Positions 1,344 to 15,761 of a DNA stretch of 32,000 nt are shown piece after piece (the first letter of the stretch is position 1; the number at the start of each line of letters is the position of its first letter). Under the pieces are notes generated by a model. It saw only the letters and a list, made by a program, of their open reading frames with translations. It ran no database searches and had not been told where the DNA came from. The stretch is from NCBI GenBank assembly GCA_045538835.1, contig JAZQEF010000018.1, forward strand, positions 320,659-352,658. The letters are read 5' to 3'. A program made the translations under genes and the position numbers. Origin of the DNA: Feifaniaceae bacterium. GTDB taxonomy: Bacteria > Bacillota > Clostridia > Oscillospirales > Feifaniaceae.

Positions 1344-1350
1344 ATCTGTT

Positions 1351-3242: not shown

Positions 3243-3268
3243 TTCTTTTTCCTCGCAAATGGATTTAT

Positions 3269-3345: not shown

Positions 3346-3393
3346 ATGTATCTCTATTATAATAAACCAATTTCAAGAAAAAGAAAAGAGTAA

Positions 3394-3421
3394 TTGCAAT
3401 AATTTTATTTTATGTTAGAAT
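3394..3421 (+). promoter_or_regulatory. Putative sigma-A promoter for the DivIVA-like gene
   Basis: TTGCAA (3394-3399), a 16-nt spacer ending in TGt, then TAGAAT (3416-3421). This is an extended -10 arrangement about 30 nt upstream of the start codon. Confidence 0.4.
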
Positions 3422-3451
3422 AGATATATAAATATGATTGGAGAAAACAAA

Positions 3452-3769: not shown

Positions 3770-3793
3770 ACGGCGGAAAATTTTCCGCCGTTT
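3768..3793. terminator. Bidirectional terminator between convergent genes
   Basis: Perfect palindrome aaacggcggaaaa/ttttccgccgttt with A/T runs on both sides. Confidence 0.8.
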
Positions 3794-3795
3794 AT

Positions 3796-4545
3796 TTATA
3801 TCAATTCAAGATGTTTCATTGCAAGATAAATGCCGTCATTTTCCACCCTTTGCGTCACATAGTCGGCATACTTGTCAACGCTCGGGCACTTGCCCATCGT
3901 TACGGCGTATCCTGCCGCATGTATCATTGCAAGGTCATTTGCCGAATCGCCGAATGCGATACAGTCGTCAAGCGTAAGCCCGTAGTGCTTAGCAACTACT
4001 TCCATTCCCGTTGCTTTTGAATAACCTTTAGGAACATTTTCGTATATATTTTCGCCTTCACGGTCGATCACTTCAAAATGCTCACCGACATATTGCAATA
4101 TTTCATCATCGACATTGACATAATACATTGCGAATTTGTCAAAAACAAAGTCATCTGCATATATGTCTATCGCATCTCCGTTATTTAAATCTGTTGTTAT
4201 ACCGTCAACACATTTTATGGTGCGTTTTGAAGCTTCGAACATACAGGAAATATTTTTTTCGATAAGTTTTTTTGCCAATTCAAGACAGAATTCATGCGGC
4301 AGGGCATTGTGTGAAACTGACTTTCCCTCAATGATAACTTCCGTACCGCAACCGCAGACATATCCGTCAAAACCGATCTTACGGTGAACATCTCTGATAA
4401 AAGAGTTGCATCTGCCTGTATTTATAAATGCCTTATGCCCGTTTTCCCTCGCCTGTTTTATCGCATCATATGTACTCTGCGCAATATAATGGCTGCCGTC
4501 GTCAGTCATAAGCGTGCCATCTATGTCAAAAAACAGAAGTTTCAT
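3796..4545 (-). CDS. Cof-type HAD-IIB family hydrolase (sugar-phosphatase-like)
   Basis: MKLLFFDIDGTLM (HAD motif I), ..INTGR.. (motif II), ..AFGDSANDLAMI (motif IV), with a cap insert of Cof type. Confidence 0.85.
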   Translation of the reverse strand: MKLLFFDIDGTLMTDDGSHYIAQSTYDAIKQARENGHKAFINTGRCNSFIRDVHRKIGFDGYVCGCGTEVIIEGKSVSHNALPHEFCLELAKKLIEKNISCMFEASKRTIKCVDGITTDLNNGDAIDIYADDFVFDKFAMYYVNVDDEILQYVGEHFEVIDREGENIYENVPKGYSKATGMEVVAKHYGLTLDDCIAFGDSANDLAMIHAAGYAVTMGKCPSVDKYADYVTQRVENDGIYLAMKHLELI

Positions 4546-4550
4546 TATAT

Positions 4551-4574
4551 AATCCTCCTTTTATACGGAGGATT
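4551..4574 (-). promoter_or_regulatory. Hairpin that contains the Shine-Dalgarno of the HAD gene; may also terminate the upstream gene
   Basis: aatcctcc/ttttatac/ggaggatt. On the minus strand the 3' arm is the AAGGAGG RBS, 8 nt before the ATG at 4545. No U-tract follows. Confidence 0.4.
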
Positions 4575-4601
4575 ATATAACATTTTTTCTTCTTTTACAA
4601 G

Positions 4602-5033
4602 TTACATAAGGACTTTACAGCCAAAAGACGATGCAAGTGTGCTTTCGATGCTCTTTGATATGTCATTATCCGTTCCGACTATTGCCGCAGTACAGCCATA
4701 CTTCTTGCAAAGATCATCAAGTTTGTAGACCGCTTCATCAGACAGGCTCTTCCCAACATATATAGTTGAAACACCGCTTCGTGTACAAGATAATAACGTC
4801 TCATAGTTTCCGTTTTCCACGATACAGACATCCGGTTTAGTCACAGCCAGAACAACATCGCAGAAATGCTCATCGCAAACCTGAACATCTTTGCCTACAT
4901 GCTGTTTTATCTCGTCCAGTTTTTCTCTGTTTCCAAGCGCCGCAACCACATCGTATCCGTCGAGTTGAAGTTTTCGCAATGTGTCATATGAAGATTCATT
5001 GCATCCCAACTGAACAACTTTTCCCTTTCCCAT
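4602..5033 (-). CDS. Hypothetical cytoplasmic protein (143 aa), family not recognised
   Basis: ORF with GAGGTG RBS 6 nt before the ATG at 5033 (the track start at 5042 is a GTG inside the RBS). MGKGKVVQLGCNESSYDTLRKLQLDGYDVV.. No motif I can name. Confidence 0.55.
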   Translation of the reverse strand: MGKGKVVQLGCNESSYDTLRKLQLDGYDVVAALGNREKLDEIKQHVGKDVQVCDEHFCDVVLAVTKPDVCIVENGNYETLLSCTRSGVSTIYVGKSLSDEAVYKLDDLCKKYGCTAAIVGTDNDISKSIESTLASSFGCKVLM

Positions 5034-5066
5034 AAAAATCACCTCAAAGTGAGAATATCCAAACCC

Positions 5067-5095
5067 TTGACAAATTATACTAAAGTTGTTATTAT
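5067..5095 (+). promoter_or_regulatory. Putative sigma-A promoter of tRNA-Ser
   Basis: TTGACA (5067-5072), a 17-nt spacer, then TATTAT (5090-5095), about 15 nt upstream of the tRNA 5' end. Confidence 0.55.
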
Positions 5096-5110
5096 ATTAA
5101 GGTCCGATAC

Positions 5111-5202
5111 GGAGATGTCGCGTAGTTGGTCGAGCGCGCACGATTGGAAATCGTGTAACCGTCAAAAGCGGTTCGAGGGTTCGAATCTCTCCATCTCCGC
5201 CA
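5111..5202 (+). tRNA. tRNA-Ser (anticodon GGA), long variable arm
   Basis: GGAGATGTCGCGTAGTTGGTCGAGCGCGCACGATTGGAAATCGTGTAACCGTCAAAAGCGGTTCGAGGGTTCGAATCTCTCCATCTCCGCCA. The acceptor stem is GGAGATG/CATCTCC, the anticodon stem is CACGA/TCGTG, and the loop is TTGGAAA. A class II variable arm is present and CCA is encoded. Confidence 0.92.
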
Positions 5203-5207
5203 TAAAA
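5186..5207 (+). repeat. attL-like copy of the 22-bp direct repeat (within intact tRNA-Ser)
   Basis: TCTCTCCATCTCCGCCATAAAA, identical to 15739-15760. The flanking bases differ on both sides. Confidence 0.85.
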
Positions 5208-5252
5208 TAACCTCTAAGCCCCTATTCATAAGGGTTTCGGGGTTATTTTTTT
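5207..5252 (+). terminator. Island-encoded replacement terminator for tRNA-Ser
   Basis: A 15-bp stem ataacctctaagccc / gggtttcggggttat (one mismatch, two G-U pairs), followed by a T7 run. Confidence 0.65.
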
Positions 5253-5325
5253 ATTCCTATTCACAACTTTGTCAAAATGAAGAAATGCACAAAAATACAT
5301 AAAATTACGCAAATAATCAAAAAAG

Positions 5326-5347
5326 TAGGGTCAAAATTAGGGTCAAA
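5326..5347 (+). repeat. Tandem 10-bp direct repeat TAGGGTCAAA x2 (2-nt spacer)
   Basis: tagggtcaaa at tagggtcaaa, read directly. It lies about 120 bp inside the left island boundary. Confidence 0.6.
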
Positions 5348-5376
5348 CAAAAAAGTCTCCAAACGGAGACCTTTTT
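5347..5376 (-). terminator. Terminator after the orphan gene fragment
   Basis: Hairpin gtctcc/aaac/ggagac, flanked by an A-run and a T-run (bidirectional shape). Confidence 0.6.
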
Positions 5377-5377
5377 A

Positions 5378-5566
5378 TTATCTATACGGATTATTTTCTG
5401 CCTTCCAGTTCTTGTTGACACTCTGCCACAATATTGCTTTATCTTGTCTTGATAAGCCTGTAAGATTTCGAATTGCCGCCGTAGCCTCTTCTTGAGTATA
5501 AGTTCCATACTTGCCAGATTCTGTAGGTCTGTCGTATTTATCAAGTGCAACTATGCCACCATTTTT
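5378..5566 (-). pseudogene. Start-less C-terminal gene fragment (62 codons plus stop)
   Basis: My own translation of a frame not reported in the track: KNGGIVALDKYDRPTESGKYGTYTQEEATAAIRNLTGLSRQDKAILWQSVNKNWKAENNPYR*. There is an in-frame stop at 5567-5569 and no ATG/GTG/TTG until codon 48. It is bracketed by terminators. Confidence 0.5.
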
Positions 5567-5580
5567 TCAATACCAAAAGC

Positions 5581-5606
5581 AAAAAAAGAACCTCGATTGA
5601 GGTTCC
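5581..5606 (-). terminator. Rho-independent terminator of the 141-aa membrane-protein gene
   Basis: On the minus strand: gaacctc/aatc/gaggttc followed by TTTTTTT. It lies immediately after the stop at 5609-5611. Confidence 0.75.
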
Positions 5607-5608
5607 TT

Positions 5609-6034
5609 TTAAAATACGTTGATGGTTGCTATGTTGCTGATATGTAAGACCATAAGAACAAACACGGCTATATAGGTGGCAGCAAAAGAGACTGTTCCCC
5701 CATAATAGAATTCTTCTTCATACTTTGGATGATAATAACTGTCTAATATCCGTTTATCCTTTCTATGAAGGAAGTAATACAGGCACATCATAAACAGGAA
5801 TACACAAGCAGAAGGAATTAGCCCAATAAACCACCATAACAGGATATACAGGAAGATGGAAGCAATTAGGCTAAGAGGGTCTCCAGTGTTCTGATTATGG
5901 ACGTAGTGAAAATACAGGGTATCGTTAGTAGTGCTGTTCAGAAGAATACAAGCCACGACAACAAAAACCAAGACTAATACAGCCACGGTAATGATAATCT
6001 TGTTCTTTTGGATGCTTCTTTCTTCGTCAGTCAT
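5609..6034 (-). CDS. Orphan small integral membrane protein (141 aa, about 4 predicted TM helices)
   Basis: AAGGAG RBS 7 nt before the ATG. Hydrophobic stretches are IIITVAVLVLVFVVVACILL, LSLIASIFLYILLWWFIGLI, PSACVFLFMMCLYYFL and VSFAATYIAVFVLMVLHI. No family recognised. Confidence 0.6.
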   Translation of the reverse strand: MTDEERSIQKNKIIITVAVLVLVFVVVACILLNSTTNDTLYFHYVHNQNTGDPLSLIASIFLYILLWWFIGLIPSACVFLFMMCLYYFLHRKDKRILDSYYHPKYEEEFYYGGTVSFAATYIAVFVLMVLHISNIATINVF

Positions 6035-6091: not shown

Positions 6092-6110
6092 CATTAAACT
6101 TCTTACGGTA

Positions 6111-6140
6111 ATAAAAGACTCCCTAATTAAAGGGAGTCTT
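6111..6140 (-). terminator. Hairpin terminator after the giant ORF
   Basis: Perfect 10-bp stem aagactccct/agggagtctt with a 6-nt loop, 7 nt after the stop. The U-tract (TTATT) is weak. Confidence 0.55.
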
Positions 6141-6146
6141 TCTCTT

Positions 6147-9100
6147 TTAATTACCGAAATACCTGATGTAGTCGTAGTCATCTTTTACGGTGGGGTATTC
6201 TGTGCCAAGTAAGAATAAGTATTCCTTGTGGCTATCACAAACAGAATAGAGATACCGTTCAATCTTTTTTCTTCTGCTACCGTTAATTGCTTTTCCGTTT
6301 TTGTAGTCGGGTTTGATACCACTCATATCTACGACTGCCGTCATAAACAATTCAGCATCAATGCCGTATTTTTCTGCTTCAACTGCTGCCTCGCTGTCAT
6401 ACATTGACAAATACATTTTCCAAGTCTCAGAATTATTTTGAGCCATATCAAGTATTATATCTACTACTTCCGACTTAGAAATCTTTCCGTCATTGTCTTC
6501 TTTAGCACCACTAACTTGAGCCCTAAATGAAATATAATTTTCAGCATCCTTACCGAAATCATCGGCTTTTTTTACCCAACTATCAGGTTTGTAATTGCTG
6601 ATGGCTTTCTTTGCTTTTTGGTTCGCATAGTCATACGCTTCATTAACGGCTTTTACTTTCTCTTCGTCAGAGAGTTTTTTATACGTTTTACTCTTCACCA
6701 ATTCAGATACTAATTTATAAGATTTTTCGCCCTTCAGTGTCGCATATCTCACATACTCATCTGCCGTCAGGTCTTTACGTACTCCATCAACCGTGAAATA
6801 CTTGCCTGCTCTTGAAGGAAACACCCCGCTTTCTCCTGTTTTGTTATAGAGACACAAGAGTTCTTCTTCCATTTTACTTGTTTCAATGTTAGATGTATAA
6901 GCAGGATTAAGGAAGTTGTTAAATCCTCTCTTAAGAGCATTACCCGATGCTTCTTTTCTTCCCCAAGCATCAATGTACGGAATTTGCTGATAATCCCAAA
7001 ACGGAATTTTCGCACTCATCTTACCGAGAGTATATTGCATATCTCCTGTTAAGAAATCGTTTTTTTCGGTGTAGGTTGTCATTCTGTGTGATTCACCTGT
7101 ACGCTCCGCTTGCCCAAAAAGCGTCGGCAAACCTTGTGTAAAGTAACTTGTTACTGCACTTGATAAGACTGCGACTAATCCAGATGTGTCATTGGATGAA
7201 GCGTAGCCTATACCCTCAACTATATCATTCACACCTTGCAAGCAAGACATTTCGAGCATAGGTTCGCTTATACGGGTTATTGATTGAAGAATACTTGAAA
7301 GGGTTACTTTTCCTTTAGAGCCTTTTTTTGACTCCCAAAGGTTAACCCCCACAAAGAAAGGTAATGCTTCGGGAGCAAGCCAGTCTAATGTAATTGATTG
7401 ACCGTTGGGCAGTTCAAGCGAATAAGCCTGGTGCCCCATTAACTCCTTAAACTCCTTTTCCTCATCATCTTCACCATGTCCTCTTACAAGTCCTTGTGCC
7501 GCATAATATACCCCAAGAGCCAAAAGTCCCGTGCCTGTTAATCCGGCAGAAATGTTGTCAATGGCTTCGGTTGCTGTCATTTTACCCTTGCCCACTTGAA
7601 CAAGGTCATAACTCAAACTTTTCAGAAGTCCCAAAGGACTGTATTCAACACCTCTTACTAGGATGTTTGCAGGTGTTTTACGGAATGGCAAAATTCCTTC
7701 AATCGCCATGCTTCCAACTTTTGTCCAAGGATTTTTCTTGTTTCCGCTTCTTCCCAACTCACTTACAAATTGAGAGAATGCATTTGTATCTCTGTATGTT
7801 GCCTTTTGAGCTTCCTTGATTGCATATTCTCTTGCAGGGGCAATTGCCTTGCCTCTGCTAATCTGTTCAGGCGTTATATTGTGAGCCTTACAATACTGTG
7901 CTAATGCATAAGCATAGTGAGGTTTCGAGAACCACATATCCTCCTCTTCAAGAAGATCACTGTTTTTCTTTCTTGACCACTCAAAAGGTCTAAATTTAAA
8001 TATTTGTCTGCCCTCTTCTATATGCCGATTTGCCATTGCGAAATCGTTATATTTACCGTCGTTTGATATAAGCTCGGCAACGTTGGCATAGTCATTCCAC
8101 GCTGCCTTTAACAAAGCCCTGTCGGTCTTGCTACCCCAAACCAAAGCCTTTCCTCGCAGCATTTTTTTACCGCCCAGATGATAAACAGCAGACTCTATTG
8201 CCGTAGCAGTCAAATTCTTTGTAGCGACAATAGGAGCAAAGCCGGCATTACCGAAAACGTTTCTGACGTGTGTACGAAGATTACCAAGCATCGCAAGGTA
8301 TCTCCAAGCATTCCACTTGTCAACGAAGCGAGATGGCATTTGTCTACCGATATCTTTGTAGATTTCCTTTTCAATCTCCGCTCGTTCTTCTTCAGTTTGG
8401 GCTTTAAGGAATTGTTCCGCAAGGTCAGTATCAATCTTAATGTCAGGTGCTTTTTTACCGTACCTTTCGGTCAATTCCTTTTTGAATGCTTCTACACTTT
8501 TCTGCACTCCGTATAACTGCGTTTCAGGCGAAAGTTTTTTCAATATCCTTGTGGCCTGTAATGCTTGTGCGGCACTGCGCTGATGTCTTACCATTGCGTC
8601 AAGAATCATAATTGCGTTTTTTGTATCTTTGCTATTTGCGGCGTGATTGTACAATATCCATCCCTTTGTAGTAAGTTCTTTCGATACCTCGCCTTTTTCT
8701 ACAGCACGAAACCAATCATCAAGGCTTTCATCCCAGCCGTGCTCTTTAATACGAGAATCTGCATCTGCTATTGCCTGTTTATCCGTATAAACGTCATAAG
8801 AGAAAATACCGTCCTCGACCATCTTCTCAATAGTGGGTACCGCTTCATCGGGCGTTGCCTTTGCTTCAAGAATAGTGCGGACTGTCTGTGATACTTTTTT
8901 GTCTTTTGATGTTTTTCGGGGTACTTGTATGTCTCTGTGTGGCTTTTCACCGCTTGGAATAGCACCGTACTTCTCAACAAGCTCCGAAAGTCTTGTCCCT
9001 GCAATGCTTTTTTTACCCTCTTGTGCATTTTCTGCGGTATTTTGCATAGAATTAGTATTGACACTGGGATTATTTTGTGATATAGTGGTGTCAACAGATG

Positions 9101-12100
9101 AGGTTGTTCCTCCGTGTAAACTGTTATCAGTTTTAGACACGGTCTTGTTAGGGACAACCTCATCATTTTTTATTGAAATAAAATTCCCCTCGTTGTCTAC
9201 AATTTCATGCAGATAATATTCGCTTGTGTTTTTATTTTGGGTAACCACCACGCCTACAAATGCGTCTTCGTTGCCTATTTTTACTTTTCCTGCAAACACA
9301 TATGAGTCGTATGGTCTGCCCTTCCATTTTTCCTGATAATCAATTTGTTTTCCGTATTTGATTATATCTGGAACGGCTCGAAACGCAATACATTTGGCTC
9401 TTCCCATTTTATGTCCTATAGCACTTTTTATTCCGTCCTTATTGAGAATTACTTCGCCAAAATCAGCCCTATATACTTTATTCCCGAGCGAGTTAAAAAA
9501 AGTTCCTACTTGTTCAACTATATTCATGTTTCTGTCATTGAAAATATCCGTATTGAGAGATAATATGACGTCTTCCTTTGATAATTGTTCAAGATTACTT
9601 TGTATTTTTTTTATTAGGCTATTTTTTTGGAAACCTTTTTTTCTTCTTTGCTCGTCCGTTTCCTCGCTCCGCGTTTCGCCTTCCGCATTTCGCATTTGAG
9701 AAGTTCGCTTCTCATTGTAGTCTCCAACTTTACCCTCTTGTGCATTTTCTGCGGTATTTTGCATAGAATTAGTATTGACAGTGAGAATATCATTTGATAT
9801 GCTATTGTCAGTAGGAACTGTTGGTGACATCTCGTCACTAACCACAGCAAGTAAAGTCTGTGGGGCAGTTCCTTTAGAGGACAACTCGTCTATGTTAACG
9901 TCGGAGGTCTTTTGGACTGTATGGCTGATTCGAGTTGTCCTCTTATTTTTTTCTATAAATTCAAATGAATATTGATACTGTTCTTTTCCCTTATCTCTAA
10001 TATCAAAAACAACATCGTAAATTGAACCGTCTATCTCAACGGTATTTTCGAAATAATACCAATACTTTACATTTTTATGTGCTAAGTTCTTAGGCTTTAC
10101 ATTTACATCTGCATAACTTGGCTCAGTTCCCTTTCCGGTAAAGGTAGCATCACTGAGAATTTGTGCAATGTCATAAAGAGAATTAATTTTTGCATTCAAC
10201 TCTTCAGGCGAACTGTCACCTCCATATAGATTTTTTTGAACAGTAAATCTATCCCCTAAAATCTGTATCTTTTTTACATCAGTTTTTAGTTTTACGGCAC
10301 CTAGGTTAAATATTGTTGCAATTCTCTGCTTGAAAAGTTCTTGTTTTGTTTCAAAGTTCATTCCTTCCGGAAAATCTGTCACATATTTTTTTATTCCATT
10401 TTTTGTTTTTCCTACATACTTAAGCTTCTCACCGTTAAATTCTCCAACCTTGCCCTCTTTTACATTCTTTGCCGCAGCAGTGTAGGCTCTCAGCCACAGT
10501 TGCTGTGCTTTTTTCTTTTCGCTGAGAAGTCCCATACTTTCGAGCACATTGTACCACCAGTCACGCACACGGAGGGCAAGGCTCTTGTCCTCTCTGATAA
10601 AGCTTTCAAGCATTTCCTCACTGTCGAACAATTCGCCTGCATAATTTACCGCAATTTCCTCATTAATGTAAGCTGTATCGTCTTTTCCATAAGCGTTTTT
10701 CGTTTCCTCATAAAGAACATCATACGCCGTCCGTCCGTTGCCAAAGCTTTCCTTTTTCAGTTTGTTTATAACATATTCCTGATACGCCGCCCATACCTCT
10801 GGCGCCGCCTGTTTCATTCTGTGCCCAAATTCGTGTGTTGCAACAAAACGTGACGGATTTTTCGCATCGGCGTTTATAAATATGCCTTTGCTTGTTATAA
10901 GTCCTTCAAGAACTTTGCCGTTCTCGTCCGTAAGATCCTTAACAAAACGCACAGTCATTCCCAAACGTTTCGCCATTCGTACAATATTGCTATATGCTCT
11001 CGGATTTTCTCTTTTCAACCTCTTTGAATATTCATCAACAACAATATTATTTACAATTTCACTTCCTTCGGGAATATCATACCGCTCCGCTTCGTGTTCA
11101 GTTGACGATTGCTGTTCATTTTTTTTGTTTTCTCCGTCCAAAACTCCAGTGTGAACATCGTTTACACTCTCATTTTTGCTTGAGTTGCTTGCATCAGATT
11201 TTATTTCTGTAAACAATGCTTCAATCTGCGGTTTAATATTATCAACATCAGAGAATCGCTCAATGTATTCGAGCATATCCTCATTATGTTCATTGTTGAC
11301 AGCCTCTACAATCCCAATATACCAAGCGTAAAATTCTTCTGTGATTTCTTTTGAAAAAGAATCAATGTTAACATTGCGAACCTCGTATGAATAAAGTTCC
11401 CTGATAACAGAAACAAACTTTTCAAATGCTTCGCTCTCAACATCTACACCACTTGAAATAATATCAATCAACTTATAGTGTTGCATTGTTAACTTCGTAC
11501 TTATGCCACGTCTTAATGCATGAAATGCTTCGTGATAGGCTGTTTCTAAACCGTCAATATCCAAATCTGACGATATAAAAATTGTTAGAGTATCGCCTAT
11601 ACCGGCAGTCACGCCTTCCGTTGAGATTTCCGAAACGTCCTTATGGTTGGTATGTAGTTCTCCTTCAAACACAACAACAGTTAAGCCTAAACTTTCAATA
11701 TTTTCGGCGGCTGTTTTTGCCTCTTTACTCCACTTGCTTTTCGGAGCATATTTGTATCCAACAGAGAGTTTTCCTAAGCTTGCATACATGTATCCGTCGT
11801 TAAGTACACGCTCTTCAAACGCTTCTGCTGTTTCTGTTTGTTCTACTCTTGCCGTTCCTCTTCCTCTTCCATTGACGCCAGTATCGCTTCTCTCGACATA
11901 CGATTTGCGTAATATTTCCTTAATTTTTCTCGCAACCTGTTCTCTATTGCTGCCTTTTCTTCTGGCGACTTCTTCGCCCATTCCTCTTCGGCTTTCAGCA
12001 TTGCCGGTGTCGGAAATTGTTTCTTCTCTGACATTAGTGTTTTCCTCCTTAACTTTGTTATCTTCGGGCAATTTGTTATTTGCCGCAACTGTTTCCTCTG

Positions 12101-14495
12101 CATTGTTTGGGATGTATACCTCATTAATTGCCATAACTACGCCTGCTACGTTGCCGTCTGAATCAGTAACTTTTATTGCATAAGGTTTTCCTTTTACAAA
12201 TGCAGCGGAAAAATCATATCCCTCAAAGTATTGGGCATAATTTTTCTTAATAGCTATCTGTCTTCCGTCATCAGTAGTAAACACATAAACCCCGTTTATG
12301 CCCGGCAAATCCACCTCAACAGGATTTGTGCTTATCGGCACATACTCGTTATTGTTCGCTATTTCTTCAATAGTTTTTGCAATATTGCTGTTGTCCTCTA
12401 ATCCCCACTCTGATTTAGCGTATTCCACATCTGATTCCGCAATAGGAATTGCAATACTACCATCAGAAATATATGCCCTGCCGTCTATTGTTCCAACTAC
12501 TTTATGAAGTGATTCCTTGTCCAACACATTTCTTGTCTTATCGGTCATTTTGCCACTTACATTATATGTCTGATTTTGCTTACCGTCAATGTTTGTAACT
12601 TTCGACCTTTCATTCGGCATATTCTTGATATGCTCTAATCTCCCTGCATTATAGGCTTCTTCCTGTTCGGGAGTTACGAGATTAACCTTTTCTCTCGGAA
12701 CGTTCTGTCTACCTGCTTCAAATGCCGCCTCTGTTGCTTTCGCTTCTATGCTTTCAATTCCATTGGATAGTCCTAATCCACCCCCCAAATTGACATTTCC
12801 TGCTTCTTCCGTTATACTATTATTGAAAGCAGACGATGAGACAAGGGGCGTTTCGGACGTATGCTGAAGGCTGATATCAGCATTCGGCACTTGGCTACCA
12901 ACGTCTGCTTTTTCTATTCTTGCAGACGTTATCCATAGTGTTTTTCGTTTACTATCGGGCACTACCTGACTTACAACATAAGTTCCGTCTATTCGCTTTT
13001 TCATAATGAATACCGGAGCTGTTTTATTATGCCTGTCATTGTATTGTCTATCAAATACTCTGTTTCCCTGATTATCAACAGCCCATTCGATAGTATCGTA
13101 ATTATTTATTATATACCCTATTCTCGCTATATCTTTCGGGTCACTTAAAGATTGGTCATGTTGCCCGCTTATACCGTGTCTGTTTTCAATATGTATCAGA
13201 CGATCACGTTCGATTCTACAAGTATAATCACTTATATCGAATCCGACAAAATCACTGATTTTCTCTGCTGTGCTTTCACCAAGTTGTGCTACCTCTATAA
13301 CGTTGGGAACATTGTCTATATCGCCTTTTCTTATACTTGTAACAGCATCTTCAATTTCAGAATTAACCGAACCAAGAAAATCCTTCCCTACCTTTTCTTC
13401 ATCATATAGGTGTACATACTCATTTTCAGTATTCTGCGTAGCATTTCTCGCATTGACAACATCTATTGCCGCCTTTTCAAGTGTGTCTTGTTCTGTTATT
13501 TCTGAGGATATAGGCTGTTCTGTTTCCGTTTCGTTTACAAGCGGTTGTTCTGTCTTTGTTCCAATTCCTTCCTGTTCAGTGCCTAAAGAAGAAATGTCCC
13601 CCCTTTTTCCTTTGTTTCTGTTATTGATGACAGCCCTTGTTGTATTAATAGTTGTTGCAGGAACATTCATTGCACCAAATCCTATTAGCGATGTTGTTGT
13701 AGTTTCTCCTAAACGGTCTCTAATCTCATCGCCTGTATACAACCATTCACCTTTATCTATCCCATACGCAAGCATTTCGCCACCGATTGTAGCTACTTCC
13801 TGCAATACTTCTTCCGTTGTTTCAGCCGCTGTACTTTTTGTTCTCTTTAGAATTTCAGCTCCGATGATTTTCAGAATATCATCGGATGCACCATTTGTTA
13901 CACCATAAATATATGCGTCCATCAATTCGTCTAACTGCGAAGCTTCAAGAAGGCCGACAATTGTGCCAACTCCGTGGGAAACATTTCTCGCTACTTCATC
14001 TGAAACACCAAGTTCTTTTAGCGTTTCATATGTATGACCCGCACTCACCTCATATGTATTCAACGAGGCGCCTGCCGCATAAGCAGCACCTGCCGCTGCT
14101 GGAACAGTAAGAGCCTCTTCAGGCATAAGTACCTGTGGCCCCGCTTGTCCCGCCGCCGCCGCCATTCCTGCCGCCGCCGTAACCATACCTGCTGTTCTTA
14201 AATCTGTTGCATTGTACCATTGCTGTCCTATAAATTCGCCTATAAACTGCAATAGTTGTTTAGCTTTATTGTCAGTATATGTGTTGTAATCTGAAGATAA
14301 CAGTTCTTTGTAATATTCAGCCGAATTTTCTCTGCCTTCCATTGCCTCAAAGGACTCCTTGCCCGACTTCATATTATAATATCCTCTTTTTACAGCTCCT
14401 ATGGTTGAATCATACCAATTAGCTTCTCTTGAACCACTCTTAAGTCTCTCGAACTGTTTCGTTAGTTCCTCAACTTCTTTTTCTGCGACTTCCAT
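6147..14495 (-). CDS. Giant multidomain 'polyvalent'-type protein of a mobile element (2,782 aa from first ATG; probably 5'-truncated)
   Basis: A single 8,349-nt open frame. Recognisable pieces are a PBECR-like nuclease motif (RLIHIENRHG ... LWITSARIEK), HEAFH and HEFGH zincin motifs, tandem modules joined by identical linkers, and a Gly/Ala-rich hydrophobic N-terminal stretch. The frame stays open 52 codons upstream of the ATG with no alternative start, and GAGGA lies only 1 nt from the ATG. Confidence 0.7.
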   Translation of the reverse strand: MEVAEKEVEELTKQFERLKSGSREANWYDSTIGAVKRGYYNMKSGKESFEAMEGRENSAEYYKELLSSDYNTYTDNKAKQLLQFIGEFIGQQWYNATDLRTAGMVTAAAGMAAAAGQAGPQVLMPEEALTVPAAAGAAYAAGASLNTYEVSAGHTYETLKELGVSDEVARNVSHGVGTIVGLLEASQLDELMDAYIYGVTNGASDDILKIIGAEILKRTKSTAAETTEEVLQEVATIGGEMLAYGIDKGEWLYTGDEIRDRLGETTTTSLIGFGAMNVPATTINTTRAVINNRNKGKRGDISSLGTEQEGIGTKTEQPLVNETETEQPISSEITEQDTLEKAAIDVVNARNATQNTENEYVHLYDEEKVGKDFLGSVNSEIEDAVTSIRKGDIDNVPNVIEVAQLGESTAEKISDFVGFDISDYTCRIERDRLIHIENRHGISGQHDQSLSDPKDIARIGYIINNYDTIEWAVDNQGNRVFDRQYNDRHNKTAPVFIMKKRIDGTYVVSQVVPDSKRKTLWITSARIEKADVGSQVPNADISLQHTSETPLVSSSAFNNSITEEAGNVNLGGGLGLSNGIESIEAKATEAAFEAGRQNVPREKVNLVTPEQEEAYNAGRLEHIKNMPNERSKVTNIDGKQNQTYNVSGKMTDKTRNVLDKESLHKVVGTIDGRAYISDGSIAIPIAESDVEYAKSEWGLEDNSNIAKTIEEIANNNEYVPISTNPVEVDLPGINGVYVFTTDDGRQIAIKKNYAQYFEGYDFSAAFVKGKPYAIKVTDSDGNVAGVVMAINEVYIPNNAEETVAANNKLPEDNKVKEENTNVREETISDTGNAESRRGMGEEVARRKGSNREQVARKIKEILRKSYVERSDTGVNGRGRGTARVEQTETAEAFEERVLNDGYMYASLGKLSVGYKYAPKSKWSKEAKTAAENIESLGLTVVVFEGELHTNHKDVSEISTEGVTAGIGDTLTIFISSDLDIDGLETAYHEAFHALRRGISTKLTMQHYKLIDIISSGVDVESEAFEKFVSVIRELYSYEVRNVNIDSFSKEITEEFYAWYIGIVEAVNNEHNEDMLEYIERFSDVDNIKPQIEALFTEIKSDASNSSKNESVNDVHTGVLDGENKKNEQQSSTEHEAERYDIPEGSEIVNNIVVDEYSKRLKRENPRAYSNIVRMAKRLGMTVRFVKDLTDENGKVLEGLITSKGIFINADAKNPSRFVATHEFGHRMKQAAPEVWAAYQEYVINKLKKESFGNGRTAYDVLYEETKNAYGKDDTAYINEEIAVNYAGELFDSEEMLESFIREDKSLALRVRDWWYNVLESMGLLSEKKKAQQLWLRAYTAAAKNVKEGKVGEFNGEKLKYVGKTKNGIKKYVTDFPEGMNFETKQELFKQRIATIFNLGAVKLKTDVKKIQILGDRFTVQKNLYGGDSSPEELNAKINSLYDIAQILSDATFTGKGTEPSYADVNVKPKNLAHKNVKYWYYFENTVEIDGSIYDVVFDIRDKGKEQYQYSFEFIEKNKRTTRISHTVQKTSDVNIDELSSKGTAPQTLLAVVSDEMSPTVPTDNSISNDILTVNTNSMQNTAENAQEGKVGDYNEKRTSQMRNAEGETRSEETDEQRRKKGFQKNSLIKKIQSNLEQLSKEDVILSLNTDIFNDRNMNIVEQVGTFFNSLGNKVYRADFGEVILNKDGIKSAIGHKMGRAKCIAFRAVPDIIKYGKQIDYQEKWKGRPYDSYVFAGKVKIGNEDAFVGVVVTQNKNTSEYYLHEIVDNEGNFISIKNDEVVPNKTVSKTDNSLHGGTTSSVDTTISQNNPSVNTNSMQNTAENAQEGKKSIAGTRLSELVEKYGAIPSGEKPHRDIQVPRKTSKDKKVSQTVRTILEAKATPDEAVPTIEKMVEDGIFSYDVYTDKQAIADADSRIKEHGWDESLDDWFRAVEKGEVSKELTTKGWILYNHAANSKDTKNAIMILDAMVRHQRSAAQALQATRILKKLSPETQLYGVQKSVEAFKKELTERYGKKAPDIKIDTDLAEQFLKAQTEEERAEIEKEIYKDIGRQMPSRFVDKWNAWRYLAMLGNLRTHVRNVFGNAGFAPIVATKNLTATAIESAVYHLGGKKMLRGKALVWGSKTDRALLKAAWNDYANVAELISNDGKYNDFAMANRHIEEGRQIFKFRPFEWSRKKNSDLLEEEDMWFSKPHYAYALAQYCKAHNITPEQISRGKAIAPAREYAIKEAQKATYRDTNAFSQFVSELGRSGNKKNPWTKVGSMAIEGILPFRKTPANILVRGVEYSPLGLLKSLSYDLVQVGKGKMTATEAIDNISAGLTGTGLLALGVYYAAQGLVRGHGEDDEEKEFKELMGHQAYSLELPNGQSITLDWLAPEALPFFVGVNLWESKKGSKGKVTLSSILQSITRISEPMLEMSCLQGVNDIVEGIGYASSNDTSGLVAVLSSAVTSYFTQGLPTLFGQAERTGESHRMTTYTEKNDFLTGDMQYTLGKMSAKIPFWDYQQIPYIDAWGRKEASGNALKRGFNNFLNPAYTSNIETSKMEEELLCLYNKTGESGVFPSRAGKYFTVDGVRKDLTADEYVRYATLKGEKSYKLVSELVKSKTYKKLSDEEKVKAVNEAYDYANQKAKKAISNYKPDSWVKKADDFGKDAENYISFRAQVSGAKEDNDGKISKSEVVDIILDMAQNNSETWKMYLSMYDSEAAVEAEKYGIDAELFMTAVVDMSGIKPDYKNGKAINGSRRKKIERYLYSVCDSHKEYLFLLGTEYPTVKDDYDYIRYFGN
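9013..9063 (-). repeat. 51-bp perfect direct repeat, copy 2 (aa ~1811-1828)
   Basis: Identical 51-mer. The offset from copy 1 is 717 bp, which equals 239 codons, so the two copies are in frame. Confidence 0.9.
9730..9780 (-). repeat. 51-bp perfect direct repeat, copy 1 (linker ..VNTNSMQNTAENAQEGK.., aa ~1572-1589)
   Basis: ttaccctcttgtgcattttctgcggtattttgcatagaattagtattgaca is identical to 9013-9063. Confidence 0.9.
10821..10835 (-). other. HExxH motif 2 (HEFGH, aa 1221-1225)
   Basis: cac gaa ttt ggg cac read on the minus strand, in frame. Context is RFVATHEFGHRMKQAAPEVW. Confidence 0.6.
11520..11534 (-). other. HExxH motif 1 (HEAFH, aa 988-992)
   Basis: cac gaa gca ttt cat read on the minus strand, in frame with the giant ORF. 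Context is LETAYHEAFHALRRG. Confidence 0.6.
12891..13313 (-). other. PBECR-like (phage Barnase/EndoU/colicin-E5/D/RelE-like) nuclease module within the giant ORF (aa ~395-535)
   Basis: ..ISDYTCRIERDRLIHIENRHGISGQHDQSLSDPKDIARIGYIINNYDTIEW...APVFIMKKRIDGTYVVSQVVPDSKRKTLWITSARIEK. The pattern h-x-H-I-x-x-R-H-G, then a short helix, then beta strands ending h-T-(S/A)-h is what I recall for PBECR modules. Recognition is from memory only. Confidence 0.55.
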
Positions 14496-14597
14496 TTCCT
14501 CAGTAACGATAATGTCCGCATGTGCTCCTATAGGAACATGCGGTGTTTCTCTCGCCAGACGTTCACTTTCTTCCGCAAATCGTTTTTCATAATACTC

Positions 14598-15505
14598 GTT
14601 CTGTAGCTGACATTCTGCAAAAGCCTGAATACCTCGGTCACACAGTAAACTTCAAAACCTACAAAAAGTCATACAAGAGCAAAAAGAAAATGTGGAATGA
14701 CCCTTCTGATTGGCAAATTTTTGAGAATACGCACGAAGCGATAATTGATGAAGAAACTTTCCGCATCGTGCAACGAATCCGTGATGGCAGAAGAAAGGTC
14801 ACAAGGATGGGAGAAATGCCAATTCTCTCAGGTATGTTGTTCTGTGCTGATTGTGGAAAGAAATTATATCAAGTTCGCTGTACAACAATGAAGCAAAAGG
14901 AATATATGGTTTGCTCTACATATCGCAAGGTCAAAGGCGGATGCTCCTCACACCAAATACAGAATGAAACAATCGAGGCTTTGCTTCTTGACGGAATACG
15001 AAGTATTACAGCATTTGCAAGAAAACATGAAAATGAATTCGTAGAACTTGTTACAAAGAAATGCCGAGCAGATGTAGACAGAACTCTCCGTGATAGCAAA
15101 AGGGAACTTGAACAGGCACAGGCTCGTATCAAGAAACTCGATGAGATTATCCAAAGGCTTTATGATGACAACCTTGAAGGGAAGATTTCAGACGAGCGTT
15201 TCAGTAAAATGACCGCTAATTACGAAGCCAAACAACAAACTCTTGAAAGCCGGACACAGGAACTGAATGAGATAATTAATTCCGAGAAAGAAAATTCTCT
15301 TAATGCCGATAGGTTCTTGAAACTTGTGAGAAAGCACACGGACATTAAAGAACTCACGGCAGAAGTTCTCCGTGAGTTTGTAGAAAAAGTTTATGTGTAT
15401 CAAAGTGAGCGTGTTAATGGCAAAATGGTGCAACGCATCAAGATTATTTACAACTGCATAGGTGATTTCCAAACACCACCAACAGAATATGAAAAAACGG
15501 CATAG
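14598..15505 (+). pseudogene. Large serine recombinase, 5'-truncated (recombinase domain, zinc ribbon and coiled coil only)
   Basis: ..ADILQKPEYLGHTVNFKTYKKSYKSKKKMWNDPSDWQIFENTHEAIIDEETFRIVQRIRDGRRK..CADCGKKLYQ..MVCSTYRKVKGGCSSHQI..KKLDEIIQRLYDDNLEGKISDERFSKM. The N-terminal resolvase catalytic domain (active-site Ser) is absent. The track's GTG start at 14543 lies in sequence that is antisense to the giant ORF. Confidence 0.8.
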
Positions 15506-15623
15506 CCGATGTTGTTTTCGACTATGCCGATTATTTCCGGGATTAAAAATCCCTAAGTGAAGACACCAAATGGGGTGGTTTTTTATTTTTAGTTAAATCA
15601 AAGAGATTCGAACACTGAGAGGG

Positions 15624-15738: not shown

Positions 15739-15760
15739 TCTCTCCATCTCCGCCATAAAA
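15739..15760 (+). repeat. attR-like copy of the 22-bp direct repeat (tRNA-Ser 3' end without the rest of the tRNA)
   Basis: TCTCTCCATCTCCGCCATAAAA. No matching acceptor 5' strand (GGAGATG) lies upstream. Confidence 0.85.
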
Positions 15761-15761
15761 A

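Follow-up and report, generated by a model that had tools for sequence, protein, structure and literature searches.

A giant stop-free frame in a Feifaniaceae genome is very probably a recently beheaded polyvalent protein gene of a deleted temperate prophage

Background

For the polyvalent proteins of phages, packaging into the capsid was predicted by Iyer, Burroughs, Anand, de Souza and Aravind (J Bacteriol 2017; PMC5512222). Two precedents are summarized in the same work: P1 DarB and the N4 virion RNA polymerase (vRNAP) are proteins of more than 2,000 aa that are packaged in the head and injected to protect or express the incoming DNA, and the terminal regions of N4 vRNAP are needed for both encapsidation and injection (PMC5512222). 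More recently, purified virions of the Stx podophage phi24B were found to contain gp47, a polyvalent protein of 2,811 aa for which a role as an encapsidated ejection protein has been put forward as a proposal (bioRxiv 10.64898/2026.04.10.717836). In gut Clostridia, the prophages phi1 and phi4 of C. clostridioforme LM41 (approximately 40.8 kb, predicted podoviruses) are spontaneously released and carry at their 3' end an 8-kb ORF that takes up about 20% of the genome and is similar to an LPD3-labelled Podoviridae protein (PMC11318856).

Here we analyze a 32,000-nt stretch of a Feifaniaceae genome (the window) that contains a giant open reading frame. The protein shares with phage-type polyvalent proteins (PMC5512222) the single giant polypeptide, the unrelated effector domains (including PBECR3, LPD3 and HExxH) and the phage or prophage context, but the window copy appears to be a 5'-truncated relic in a deleted prophage, and its constant modules at the N terminus (~300 aa) and C terminus (~850 aa) match no LPD or Pfam model. 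The best experimental analogue for the intact family is phi24B gp47, which is nearly of the same size and also comes from a temperate podovirus; compared by description, however, it differs in its LPD5, LPD1, LPD38 and MuF-C domains and its Gram-negative host. LM41 phi1 and phi4, likewise matched by description, have the giant ORF as last gene, with position and scale as in the relatives studied here, whereas these prophages are complete and their giant ORFs intact. A further likeness concerns the podovirus internal virion or ejection proteins (T7 gp14-gp16 class, PHROG 511): in relatives the giant gene is the last of a PHROG 511-led cluster, and the predicted all-helical fold of the C-terminal module resembles internal virion proteins of the cyanopodoviruses S-CBP2/3 and S-RIP1 and of a Pelagibacter phage (BFVD). 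Classical ejection proteins, however, are without the cytoplasmic effector domains that the giant protein has fused. The terminal regions of N4 vRNAP may be regarded as analogous to the constant N- and C-terminal modules, although no homology to DarB or N4 vRNAP was detected and their enzymatic content is different (methylase/helicase and RNA polymerase, respectively).

Results and discussion

A prophage remnant at tRNA-Ser(GGA)

The features of the locus are collected in Table 1. An exact 22-nt repeat of the tRNA 3' end, TCTCTCCATCTCCGCCATAAAA, delimits an island of 10.55 kb (5208-15760). Capsid, tail, T4SS, relaxase and replication genes are absent from the window, in agreement with the initial annotation that described the giant ORF as stranded. 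The island is nevertheless not bare of mobile-element genes: both att repeats and a serine integrase with a truncated 5' end are present. The latter matches Pfam Recombinase (profile positions 42-102 only), Zn_ribbon_recom and DUF4368, as well as PHROG 95 'integrase' (E 2.7e-42, again only over profile positions 300-565 of 651). With an identity of just 24% to the integrases found in relatives, it is no more than the putative integrase of this element. An att identity of 22 nt is more typical of tyrosine than of serine integrases. Together, the att repeats at a tRNA, the integrase remnant and the structural and replication modules that are missing in comparison with intact relatives are what is expected of a cryptic prophage. 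That the giant gene is of phage origin is further indicated by its homologues, found in prophages and IMG/VR contigs.

Table 1. Coordinates of the features in and around the island (positions in the window).
Feature	Position	Strand	Remarks
tRNA-Ser(GGA), integration target of the element	5111..5202	+	ARAGORN; same tRNA flanks the related element at syntenic locus L007
att direct repeat, copy 1	5186..5207		exact 22-nt repeat overlapping the tRNA 3' end; spacing 10,553 nt
att-proximal arm without recognisable gene	5208..5608		small ORFs without Pfam match
141-aa orphan membrane ORF (4-TM gene)	5609..6034	-	variable cargo, not a conserved partner
Palindromic terminator-like hairpin	6114..6141		directly after the giant ORF stop; 11-pair stem
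5'-truncated phage giant polyvalent protein gene	6147..14600	-	called ORF 6147-14495; homologous coding sequence without start codon to ~14600
C-terminal Tyr/Asp/Lys-rich tail (aa 2698-2782)	6150..6404	-	also in SNF2/LPD38-type giants without the C-terminal module
C-terminal all-helical module (aa ~1835-2690)	6426..8993	-	unnamed domain terminating thousands of giant phage proteins
82-nt DNA repeat encoding the linker NTNSMQNTAENAQEGK	9012..9093; second copy 9729..9810		copies 88% identical
LPD3 domain 2 (aa 1670-1761)	9213..9488	-	PF18798: 43.3 bits whole protein, 34.2 bits tile; cut-off 27
LPD3 domain 1 (aa ~1431-1505)	9981..10205	-	22.2 bits, below Pfam cut-off 27
Second HExxH module, HEFGH (aa 1221), zincin-like	10446..11048	-	kept in ~35 homologues, there upstream of MuF_C
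First HExxH motif, HEAFH (aa 988)	11520..11534	-	in aa 620-1100, a region nearly without homologues; no Pfam match
PBECR3 predicted endoRNase (aa 406-529)	12909..13280	-	Pfam PF18812
Conserved N-terminal helical module with Gly/Ala-rich segment	13596..14600	-	aa 1-300 and pre-ATG codons
5'-truncated large serine integrase	14601..15505	+	Resolvase catalytic domain absent; the called ORF (14543-15505) opens within antisense sequence of the giant gene
Strong bidirectional terminator-like hairpin after the integrase fragment	15498..15529		12-pair stem, 7 GC pairs, T-run
att direct repeat, copy 2	15739..15760		exact 22-nt repeat of the tRNA-Ser(GGA) 3' end

The small membrane gene next to the giant ORF had been put forward as its only intact partner. 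No related locus has a counterpart, and the gene forms a transcription unit of its own, with a promoter-like site at 6091-6063 and a terminator at 5610-5583. It has no PHROG match, and Pfam yields only a sub-threshold BrkB similarity (23.6 bits against a cut-off of 33.7).

The giant frame has lost its 5' end

As initially described, the frame at 6147-14495 (8,349 nt, 2,782 codons, minus strand) is uninterrupted and makes up 79% of the 10,553-nt island and 26% of the window. It has zero internal stops, against 169 and 285 in the other two minus-strand frames over the same region. Its beginning, annotated as a coiled-coil-like start, is however not a true start. Homology to relatives runs on for ~35-41 in-frame codons upstream of the ATG; these codons contain no start codon and align with residues 134-180 of homologue P0001 as well as with the corresponding segment in P0002, P0023, P0025 and P0004 (E as low as 2e-40). 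The first residue of the called ORF corresponds to residue 168-330 in the closest relatives, and all homologues aligning to the N-terminal module have extra N-terminal sequence (at least ~30-330 residues), their alignments starting no earlier than subject residue 54 and as late as ~330. Because relatives align upstream of the ATG and have more N-terminal sequence, the giant frame is, judged from these alignments, 5'-truncated, without the native start codon and N terminus seen in homologues. The homology stops at ~14600, where that to recombinases starts on the opposite strand. An intact frame with a host role, considered the best candidate for an undescribed system, is not supported: at the deletion junction, where the gene meets the decapitated integrase, its native 5' end and its upstream signals are gone.

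Signals for expression of the remaining frame are poor. A consensus scan finds no promoter-like site on the minus strand within ~400 nt upstream of the ATG (weak evidence, notably for Clostridia); the nearest one, at 14928-14901, scores 9/12 in a scan that cannot exclude expression. A GAGG motif lies merely 2 nt from the ATG. The hairpin at 15529-15498 would block minus-strand read-in toward the giant ORF. We infer that the ORF is most likely unexpressed and a recent pseudogene. Of all substitutions in the frame, 5.05% would make a stop; with neutral divergence of 0.5% the frame would stay free of stops with a probability of 0.12, and with 1% the value falls to 0.015. The open frame therefore only requires less than ~0.5% neutral divergence since the deletion, and is most likely free of stops only because little time has elapsed. 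Of very recent decay and retention by the host, which had been offered as the two possibilities, the former is the more likely.

A polyvalent architecture between two constant modules

All motifs quoted in the initial annotation were recovered at the corresponding relative positions: the Gly/Ala-rich stretch (aa 101-143), the two HExxH motifs, the linker NTNSMQNTAENAQEGK at aa 1574 and aa 1813, WNAWRYLAMLGN at aa 2061, PFRKTPANIL at aa 2270 and AGLTGTGLL at aa 2317. The 'hydrophobic helix' is only moderately hydrophobic; no 19-residue window exceeds a mean Kyte-Doolittle value of 1.4. The Tyr/Asp-rich tail is present, with Lys as a third abundant residue; over residues 2699-2781 it is 60-63% identical to P0030 and P0032 and 35-38% to P0010 and P0012.

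Pfam searches were run with the whole protein and with tiles, against curated cut-offs, and both PBECR3 and LPD3 are matched above them. The PBECR-like nuclease module turns out to be PBECR3 (cut-off 30; the full-length query scores 38.6 bits and the tile 45.1 bits), and the two tandem modules are divergent LPD3 domains, one above and one below the cut-off of 27. BLAST similarity between the latter is restricted to the linker (68% identical over ~31 aa). Since PBECR3 and LPD3 exceed their curated cut-offs, the assignment as a phage polyvalent multi-domain protein, beads on a string as first proposed, is supported at the sequence level. Homologues carry swappable ART-PolyVal, MuF_C, LPD23, LPD38, PBECR5, SNF2 and methylase modules. 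Both HExxH motifs exist, but no Pfam zincin model is reached: MPTase-PolyVal (PF18818), a processing peptidase that many though not all polyvalent proteins carry, gives no match at E<=1, and only the second motif gives a sub-threshold hint of Peptidase_M78 (E 0.021). MuF has no Pfam match in the protein either; in relatives the HEFGH module and MuF_C are distinct.

The coverage map of 120 homologues places the N-terminal module close to the N terminus in 75-77 of them, and its alignment (A2) contains 23 invariant columns. The AlphaFold2 model is a helical bundle (pLDDT 73.2) with weak fold matches (best E 1.1e-3), mostly to BFVD '_1' entries, which are the first segments of further giant phage proteins. 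At the other end, a region of about 950 aa had been left without assignment. This was correct in so far as no Pfam model covers it, yet ~850 aa constitute a conserved all-helical module, which is found in 43-48 of the 120 homologues, shows 25 invariant columns in its alignment (A1) and has 7,406 database representatives at E<=1e-3. Matches in Pfam, PHROG, NCBIfam and PDB are zero, and a PHROG search with the giant protein is negative as well. LPD38 was tried as a candidate and rejected: hhalign against an alignment of 24 LPD38 segments gives a probability of 0.8%, and Pfam gives no match.

An AlphaFold2 model of this C-terminal module (pLDDT 72.6, pTM 0.60) was compared with known folds by Foldseek. 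Its BFVD matches comprise polyvalent giants of viruses (E 1e-73 to 1e-29) and models from marine podoviruses labelled internal virion protein (E 1e-9 to 1.8e-11, TM 0.28-0.43), the latter over 831-1,050 columns. The predicted fold thus resembles that of podovirus internal virion proteins. Against solved structures, including the T7 core proteins, there is no match (best E 0.23), nor does any solved structure match the N-terminal module.

Relatives place the gene at the end of intact prophages

Intact relatives are ~40-kb prophages and viral contigs of gut Clostridia, of which several are named Caudoviricetes and others come from IMG/VR. Their giant gene is found at the end of the prophage, past the lysis genes, in the order internal virion protein (IVP), 125-aa gene, ~400-510-aa gene, giant gene, followed by att and an opposing integrase. 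The four-gene order is seen in L001/L008, L002, L003, L004, L005, L009, L014, L015 and L018. The IVP belongs to PHROG 511 (E 8e-62, 1e-59 and 2e-51) and lies two to three genes upstream in 9 loci; it shows no sequence-level similarity to the giant protein, and its cluster is deleted from the window. An opposing full-length serine integrase follows the giant gene in L004, L005 and L018 and a cut copy in L003; in L001/L008 there is a tyrosine integrase and then repressor, cro and replication genes. The tyrosine integrase match of L009 is weak, and in L002 host DNA follows directly. Tabulation of the contexts shows that all relatives examined with enough upstream sequence have the gene behind the IVP cluster at the prophage end, beside att and integrase. 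According to the initial annotation, homologues always embedded in complete prophages would refute its reading. This is largely what we find, though not as tape-measure proteins.

The great length, the mostly helical nature, the Gly/Ala-rich segments and the homologues in prophages would suit a tape-measure-like tail component of a siphovirus or myovirus prophage. This is nevertheless extremely improbable, because the protein has no tape-measure or minor-tail match in Pfam or PHROG, contains the enzymatic effector domains PBECR3 and HExxH, exchanges its middle modules freely among relatives (incompatible with a length-determining ruler) and is encoded in relatives after the lysis genes rather than between tail-chaperone and distal-tail genes. 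The related LM41 prophages, too, are predicted podoviruses without a tape measure.

A second remnant and the question of retention by the host

At the syntenic locus L007 a relative was acquired independently at the same tRNA. Positions 5208-5376 of the island are still homologous to the arm of that element (blastn: window 5376..1316 = L007 14541..18582). Its giant gene is truncated elsewhere (aa 419), remains open for 1,972 codons and adjoins candidate defence genes (PDC-M40B-like, E 3e-22, and SecB-like PD-T4-9_C). Between both loci the giant gene has a dS of 0.16-0.37, against 0.9 to saturation for the host flanks, and a dN/dS of 0.20-0.25. As the two elements arrived independently, selection acting earlier, when the genes still belonged to phages, can account for this low ratio. 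We looked for sister copies with the same deletion junction and found none. With two stop-free remnants (2,782 and 1,972 codons), pure neutrality needs each deletion to be very recent.

It might be argued that the host has kept a truncated protein, made from the internal ATG, for superinfection exclusion, as a decoy of the ejection machinery, or as a PBECR3/zincin toxin or defence effector. We consider such domestication unlikely. The lost N-terminal part is mostly low-complexity leader, so that the product would retain nearly all domains, and a stop-free frame of 8.3 kb is improbable past 0.5-1% neutral divergence; however, the frame has neither a promoter-like site nor a good ribosome-binding site, and a terminator lies upstream. 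The independent copy at L007, open as well and beside candidate defence genes, may hint at recurrent retention, but the truncation points differ (~35-41 codons before the ATG against aa 419), hence there is no common architecture. No partner gene is conserved, and PADLOC-DB 2.0 returns 0 families for both the giant and the 4-TM ORF. A distant relative (P0113, 1,712 aa) does occur in a small integrative element without structural genes. Low dN/dS is accounted for by divergence in phage lineages, and no sister copies sharing the junction were found from which selection after truncation could be judged. Finally, there are two cases only, and deletion bias makes young remnants the ones that are observed.

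A bolder version is that decapitated polyvalent genes at this tRNA-Ser hotspot are repeatedly co-opted by Clostridia against related podophages and, separately, that the C-terminal module is a major unrecognised ejectosome domain of Gram-positive podophages. We give it little credence. If true, a truncated ejection protein might jam incoming ejectosomes, or PBECR3/zincin might act as an abortive-infection effector, and co-option would explain the multi-kb open frames of both the window and the L007 copy.

Even less probable is that the island derives from an ICE or transposon, conjugative or integrative, instead of a phage. Clostridial conjugative transposons often carry serine recombinases of the DUF4368 type, and the Recombinase, Zn_ribbon_recom and DUF4368 domains of the fragment would fit there, but its best PHROG is the phage integrase 95. 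It is only distantly related to the integrases of phage relatives, and ~40% of polyvalent proteins are located on conjugative elements. Yet T4SS, relaxase and coupling-protein genes are found neither in the window nor in L001-L019, whereas relatives have holin, endolysin, tail protein, internal virion protein, CI/Cro and Gam/SSB genes as neighbours. The C-terminal module is also unmatched in 72,556 plasmids, and its fold matches are all viral.

Proposed origin and function

The reading that we prefer, with considerable confidence, is that the island is the remnant of a temperate phage reduced by one internal deletion and that the giant gene is a beheaded, recent relic rather than an undescribed host system. 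The island keeps both prophage ends, and a single internal deletion would have taken the rest. The parent phage was probably podovirus-like, judging from PHROG and BFVD labels and from the LM41 prophage paper (compared by description).

A temperate phage of ~40 kb from gut Clostridia would have used tRNA-Ser(GGA) as its integration site. Its free form would have the giant gene at the end of the late cluster, facing the integrase gene across attP; after integration both genes would lie at opposite prophage ends with their 5' ends inward. One deletion with its endpoints within these two genes could then have removed about three quarters of the genome, including lysogeny control, replication, packaging, head, tail, lysis and the internal-virion-protein cluster. 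This would have fused the two decapitated genes head-to-head at ~14600/14601. The giant gene would have lost its low-complexity leader, start codon, ribosome-binding site, promoter and partner genes, the surviving frame retaining nearly all folded modules (N-helical, PBECR3, two HExxH, two LPD3, the ~850-aa C-helical module and the tail).

By analogy, members of the intact family are most readily interpreted as ejection and early-effector proteins that travel in the capsid. Synthesis of the protein would be late; together with the internal virion proteins encoded beside it, it would enter the capsid and later pass into the cell before the DNA or along with it. Encapsidation, ejection or the formation of a conduit might be the task of the constant helical modules at both ends. 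The middle modules, which are swappable (RNase, zincin peptidases and LPDs; ART, SNF2 helicase and methylase in relatives), would counter host defences in the first minutes, and the zincins possibly self-process the giant protein before the effectors act.

Conclusions

At the level of the locus, our results correct an over-interpretation, as the spectacular open frame is very probably a beheaded prophage gene. The comparison documents a coherent and very large temperate-phage family of gut Clostridia, in which the last late gene encodes a polyvalent protein of 2,000-4,700 aa. Its chassis consists of a constant N-terminal helical module and a C-terminal helical module and/or tail, with interchangeable effector cassettes in between. 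If the C-terminal module were named and modelled, many gut prophages could be annotated better, and experimentalists would gain a handle on how proteins of 300-500 kDa are packaged and ejected, a question left open by the phi24B gp47 paper.

Domains of the giant ORF

An ORF scan of the minus strand gives the giant ORF (6147-14495) 2,782 codons with no internal stop; the other two minus-strand frames over it have 169 and 285 stops. All sequence landmarks quoted in the initial annotation were found, at consistent positions. Of the assignments proposed there, PBECR3 and LPD3 are borne out by Pfam matches above the curated cut-offs, but a zincin is not found for either HExxH motif: neither HEAFH nor HEFGH matches a Pfam zincin model, and the sole trace is Peptidase_M78 (E 0.021). 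The two 'tandem modules' have only a linker of ~31 aa in common according to BLAST, seen at the DNA level as an 82-nt repeat. No match to the giant protein was obtained in PHROGs and NCBIfam (whole-protein scans) or PADLOC, phmmer with the whole protein found nothing at E<=1 among PDB sequences, and no database record has exactly the same sequence. The HEFGH module is not MuF_C, a candidate ruled out because MuF_C lies ~90-260 residues farther downstream in relatives. With both the diagnostic domains and a mobile-element context, the giant ORF is a member of the polyvalent-protein class.

Features of the island and of the giant ORF (nucleotide positions in the window, or residues of the giant ORF marked aa; Pfam scores in bits)
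Feature	Position	Strand	Remarks
22-nt direct repeat	5186-5207 and 15739-15760		TCTCTCCATCTCCGCCATAAAA, exact
tRNA-Ser(GGA)	5111-5202		3' end overlapped by first repeat copy
141-aa membrane (4-TM) ORF	5609-6034	minus	
Recombinase ORF	14543-15505	plus	Recombinase (profile positions 42-102 only), Zn_ribbon_recom, DUF4368
PBECR3	aa 406-529	minus	38.6 whole protein, 45.1 as tile; cut-off 30
LPD3, best stretch	aa 1670-1761	minus	43.3; cut-off 27
Second LPD3, sub-threshold	preceding module	minus	22.2; cut-off 27
HEAFH motif	aa 988	minus	
HEFGH motif	aa 1221	minus	

Constant ends and a variable middle

The family to which the giant ORF belongs is large and unnamed, and consists of giant proteins of clostridial temperate phages. 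Homologues of the ORF are all 1,700-4,700 aa long and come from Clostridia metagenomes and MAGs, many on contigs of ~40 kb and several called Caudoviricetes by the source; four lie on IMG/VR viral contigs and 11 in GTDB genomes (Feifaniaceae, Ructibacterium, Lawsonibacter hominis, Oscillospiraceae). Constant and variable parts were set apart by a coverage map of 120 homologues. The N-terminal module (query aa 1-300) is present in 75-77 of these, always near the N-terminus, with 23 columns invariant in its alignment (A2). AF2 models it as a helical bundle (pLDDT 73) that has marginal fold matches only (best E 1.1e-3), mostly to the first segments of other giant phage proteins, for example ones containing RelA/SpoT, RNAP, helicase, LT_GEWL or MuF_C. 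Among curated phage genomes, the N-terminal module matches only the unannotated Phage zth2-2 (31%).

The region of about 950 aa that had been left unassigned corresponds to the C-terminal module (aa ~1835-2690). No Pfam, PHROG or NCBIfam model matches it. The module is conserved: 43-48 of the 120 homologues carry it, with 25 invariant columns including DKWNAWRYLAMLGNxRTH, LPFxKTPANILxRGxEYSP and PYIDAWGR, and the helix GLTGTGLxxLG is conserved as well. An exhaustive phmmer search of 1.84 billion cluster representatives retrieved 7,406 at E<=1e-3 and 3,442 at E<=1e-30, and of the 150 matches listed, nearly all have the module at the C-terminus of a protein of 1,200-4,000 aa. Its AF2 model is almost entirely helical (pLDDT 72.6, pTM 0.60). 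Foldseek against BFVD yields viral polyvalent giants (E 1e-73 to 1e-29), followed by proteins annotated as 'internal virion protein' over 831-1,050 aligned columns at TM 0.28-0.43, namely those of Pelagibacter phage Eyrgjafa (E 1.8e-11) and of the Synechococcus podophages S-RIP1, S-CBP3 and S-CBP2 (E 5e-11 to 1e-9). Solved structures gave no match (best E 0.23), and tblastn against 50,697 curated phage genomes and 72,556 plasmids gave nothing at 1e-5. A divergent LPD38 was ruled out by hhalign (probability 0.8%), and hmmsearch found no match that would make the module a paralogue of the PHROG 511 protein or of the 125- and 400-aa neighbours encoded beside it in relatives.

A distant copy of the C-terminal module (25% identity) occurs in a 1,712-aa protein, P0113, which is present on 12 contigs. 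At locus L019 (4967-19700) its gene lies in a ~15-kb integrative element that also encodes a tyrosine integrase, ParE, a CI-like repressor and a sigma-70 region-4 protein but has no capsid, tail or lysis genes; the element may be satellite-like or represent a remnant of another class.

Between its ends the protein is variable. PBECR3 is found in ~22-36 homologues and the HEFGH module in ~35; almost none has the HEAFH region (aa 620-1100). Alternative middle modules in relatives are ART-PolyVal, MuF_C, PBECR5, LPD23, LPD38, GNAT, MutS_I, or SNF2 plus methylase. The 85-aa tail, in contrast, is a third constant part, found also, at 60-63% identity, in SNF2/LPD38-type giants without the C-terminal module. 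In the genome, the SNF2-type giant P0030 takes the same place behind the same internal virion protein (IVP) cluster, and this slot is therefore a cassette site. Giants with a wholly different middle (SNF2 helicase/LPD38 type, 3,927 aa) fill it in loci L018 (6553-23240) and L003-L005, sharing with the window protein only the N-terminal module and the tail.

Intact relatives and a probable explanation of the island

In every locus with enough upstream sequence (L001/L008, L002, L003, L004, L005, L009, L014, L015, L018) the same three genes precede the giant gene. The product of the first has 510-700 aa and matches PHROG 511 'internal virion protein' (E 8e-62, 1e-59, 2e-51), that of the second has ~125 aa and that of the third 400-510 aa. 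Genes for a tail protein, holin and endolysins come before these three. The gene downstream of the giant gene, read from the other strand, encodes an integrase. L004, L005 and L018 have a serine integrase of full length (L003 has a cut copy), and L001/L008 have a tyrosine integrase, which L009 matches weakly; the integrase type is thus exchanged among otherwise syntenic relatives. CI-like and Cro-like regulators and replication genes (Gam, SSB) follow. In L002 host DNA comes directly after the giant gene, and in L010 the giant gene is followed by two tRNA-Ser genes. From this gene order, giant gene and integrase face each other across attP in the circular phage, and in the prophage they are therefore the two terminal genes, with their 5' ends inward.

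The same picture is presented by prophages phi1 and phi4 of C. clostridioforme LM41, predicted podoviruses of ~40.8 kb whose encapsidated DNA is released spontaneously; an 'unusually large (8 kb) ORF' at their 3' ends takes up ~20% of the genome and resembles an LPD3-labelled Podoviridae protein (PMC11318856).

The window island consists of exactly the giant-gene end and the integrase end with nothing in between, and a single internal deletion, of roughly 30 kb, explains its whole structure. The insertion between the 22-nt repeats measures 10,553 nt, of which the giant ORF makes up 79%; its other two features are the 141-aa membrane ORF and the recombinase ORF. Beyond the repeats lie clostridial housekeeping genes of an ordinary kind (phosphoglycerate mutase, HAD hydrolases, SIS, M20 peptidase, aldo-keto reductase, Mn-catalase, BofA, Wzy, glycosyltransferases and others). 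The recombinase ORF is a large serine integrase that lacks the catalytic Resolvase domain, because the Recombinase profile is covered only in part and the match to PHROG 95 'integrase' is confined to profile positions 300-565 of 651.

Two proposals for the 4-TM ORF lack support. As a host BrkB/YihY gene truncated and split by the insertion it shows only a sub-threshold match, and the second half is absent; as a conserved partner of the giant gene it has a homologue near none of the relatives.

The att site itself is unusual, in that a 22-nt identity restoring the tRNA 3' end is paired with a fragment (14601-15505) of a serine rather than a tyrosine integrase. The att sites of serine integrases normally have just a short core in common. 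With only ~24% identity to the relatives' serine integrases, the fragment is no more than a putative owner of the 22-nt att site.

Further irregularities concern host genes. Within 2025-3345, the longest ORF call for phosphoglycerate mutase (GTG at 3296) overlaps tRNA-Arg(CCG) (3269-3345) on the same strand; its true start is probably farther downstream, as the Metalloenzyme Pfam match begins at residue 19. DegV is split over two minus-strand ORFs with the middle absent (22303-22653, Pfam profile 1-109; 22007-22333, profile 177-280), and the adjoining 201-aa ORF (22663-23268, minus) is a fragment combining Fe-ADH with an aldehyde-dehydrogenase C-terminus, resembling an AdhE remnant. There are therefore further host pseudogenes near the island.

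The giant gene has lost its 5' end

Residue 1 of the giant ORF never aligned with the N-terminus of a homologue (BLAST, 120 homologues): it corresponds to residue 168-181 in P0001, P0002, P0023 and P0025, to residue ~310-330 in P0003-P0006, and to at least residue ~54 in every relative. Upstream of the ATG the frame stays open for ~50 codons. Within this stretch, the 35-41 codons nearest the ATG (..NEYYEKRFAEESERLARETPHVPIGAHADIIVTEE) can be aligned with residues 134-180 of P0001 and the corresponding part of P0002, P0023, P0025, P0004, P0003 and P0006, with E down to 2e-40; they contain no ATG, GTG or TTG. Homology to the giant gene stops at ~14600, and on the other strand recombinase homology (..SVADILQKPEYLGHTV..) begins at ~14601. 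Thus two genes have been fused head-to-head with the 5' end gone from each, at a junction reading ...CATAATACTCGTT|CTGTAGCTGAC...; 28-nt and 20-nt patterns of this junction found no other copy in metagenome contigs.

Going by the nearest relatives, the giant gene has lost ~135-280 N-terminal residues, mostly a basic, Ser/Thr/Lys-rich low-complexity leader, together with its start codon, ribosome-binding site and promoter. No promoter-like site occurs for ~400 nt upstream on the minus strand, the sole Shine-Dalgarno-like GAGG lies 2 nt from the ATG, and a strong terminator hairpin (15529-15498) upstream of the ORF would halt read-in. With start, recognizable signals, partners and phage all missing, the best-supported reading is that the window copy no longer works at all, and we hold this with considerable confidence.

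Age of the deletion and a sister remnant

The initial annotation saw in the open frame either very recent decay or retention for a host-side role. Of all single-nucleotide substitutions in the giant ORF, 5.05% would make a stop, and the probability that it has stayed stop-free falls from 0.43 at a neutral divergence of 0.2% to 0.12 at 0.5% and to 0.015 at 1%, in a calculation that omits indels at its fifteen homopolymer runs (at least 6 G, at least 7 A or T). The open frame therefore shows only that the deletion is young.

A second remnant is present at L007, a syntenic Feifaniaceae MAG locus with the same flank (tRNA-Ser(GGA), tRNA-Arg(CCG), phosphoglycerate mutase; host DNA ~82% identical). 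Its giant-gene copy is truncated elsewhere: homology starts abruptly at GFDISDYTC, window aa 419, inside PBECR3, with unrelated sequence and a stop ahead of it. A single att copy is left, and a search for an integrase found none. Between the two copies dN/dS is 0.195 over the C-terminal 1,200 codons (dS 0.37) and 0.25 over PBECR3 (dS 0.16). These ratios are low, but they do not amount to selection on the remnant, given that dS in the host flank genes is far higher (0.9 to saturation). The module mosaic differs as well, with identities of 97%, 95%, 88% and 56%. The two elements were thus separate acquisitions that long postdate the split of the hosts, and the purifying selection acted while these were phage genes. 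A common origin of both remnants in one ancient insertion would mean that the remnant had been under purifying selection for a long time; such an origin is ruled out by the island dS (0.16-0.37 against 0.9 to saturated in the flank) and by the differing breakpoints.

Beside the truncated giant gene of L007 (2624-7093, minus) are four genes of 305, 522, 345 and 282 aa; a match to the PADLOC candidate PDC-M40B (E 3e-22) is obtained with the one of 522 aa, and a weak match to HNH with the one of 345 aa. On the other side (13447-14353) a HicB-like and SecB-like (PD-T4-9_C) pair resembles a toxin-antitoxin-chaperone module. The tRNA-Ser site may be a defence-island hotspot. In addition, L007 (compared over 1300-2480) lacks ~7.5 kb of the window (15760-23310; SIS, M20 peptidase, aldo-keto reductase/Fe-S, DUF2935, Mn-catalase, HAD, broken DegV/AdhE); there the far side of the island is followed almost at once by the DUF1836/YegS genes of window 23310-24600.

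It might be argued that the truncated giant gene has been domesticated by the host. Two independent remnants with multi-kb open frames are mildly suggestive of this, as are the candidate defence genes adjoining one of them and the presence of the distant relative P0113 in a small integrase-and-repressor element without structural genes. Nevertheless we regard domestication as very improbable: the truncated architectures of window and L007 are not shared, sister copies with the same junction were looked for and none was found, recognizable expression signals, a conserved partner and a PADLOC match are all absent, and there are just two cases.

Proposed role of the intact family

For the intact family, the most likely mechanism, towards which we lean, is that of a capsid-packaged, ejected late protein whose middle cassettes act in the cytoplasm. 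The giant protein would be produced late, packaged in the capsid together with the co-encoded internal virion proteins and, at infection, ejected through a short tail. Encapsidation, ejection or a conduit function would fall to the two constant helical modules, N- and C-terminal, together with the tail segment. The middle cassettes would go to work in the cytoplasm at once, directed against host defences or at host RNA and protein; an autoprocessing step by the zincin modules may come first. In the window protein the cassettes would be a BECR-fold RNase, two HExxH modules and two LPD3 domains. The same model was given for phage polyvalent proteins by Iyer et al. 2017 (PMC5512222). By analogy, recent experimental support comes from the podophage phi24B, whose polyvalent gp47 (2,811 aa) is abundant in virions, is not visible in the capsid and tail reconstruction, and has been proposed as an ejection protein (bioRxiv 10.64898/2026.04.10.717836).

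Summarizing, the window locus is not the undescribed system for which it was named the best candidate: it is a broken copy of a known class, which largely explains the claim away, and the phenomenon has been described before (PMC5512222, PMC11318856; phi24B preprint, bioRxiv 10.64898/2026.04.10.717836). As far as the libraries searched show, three things are undescribed so far: the chassis, constant at the N- and C-terminal ends; its linkage to the PHROG 511 cluster, which is invariable; and how large the family of the C-terminal module is. That module is a candidate to be defined as a new domain family, and these family-level observations are of some use to annotators and to students of phage ejection proteins.
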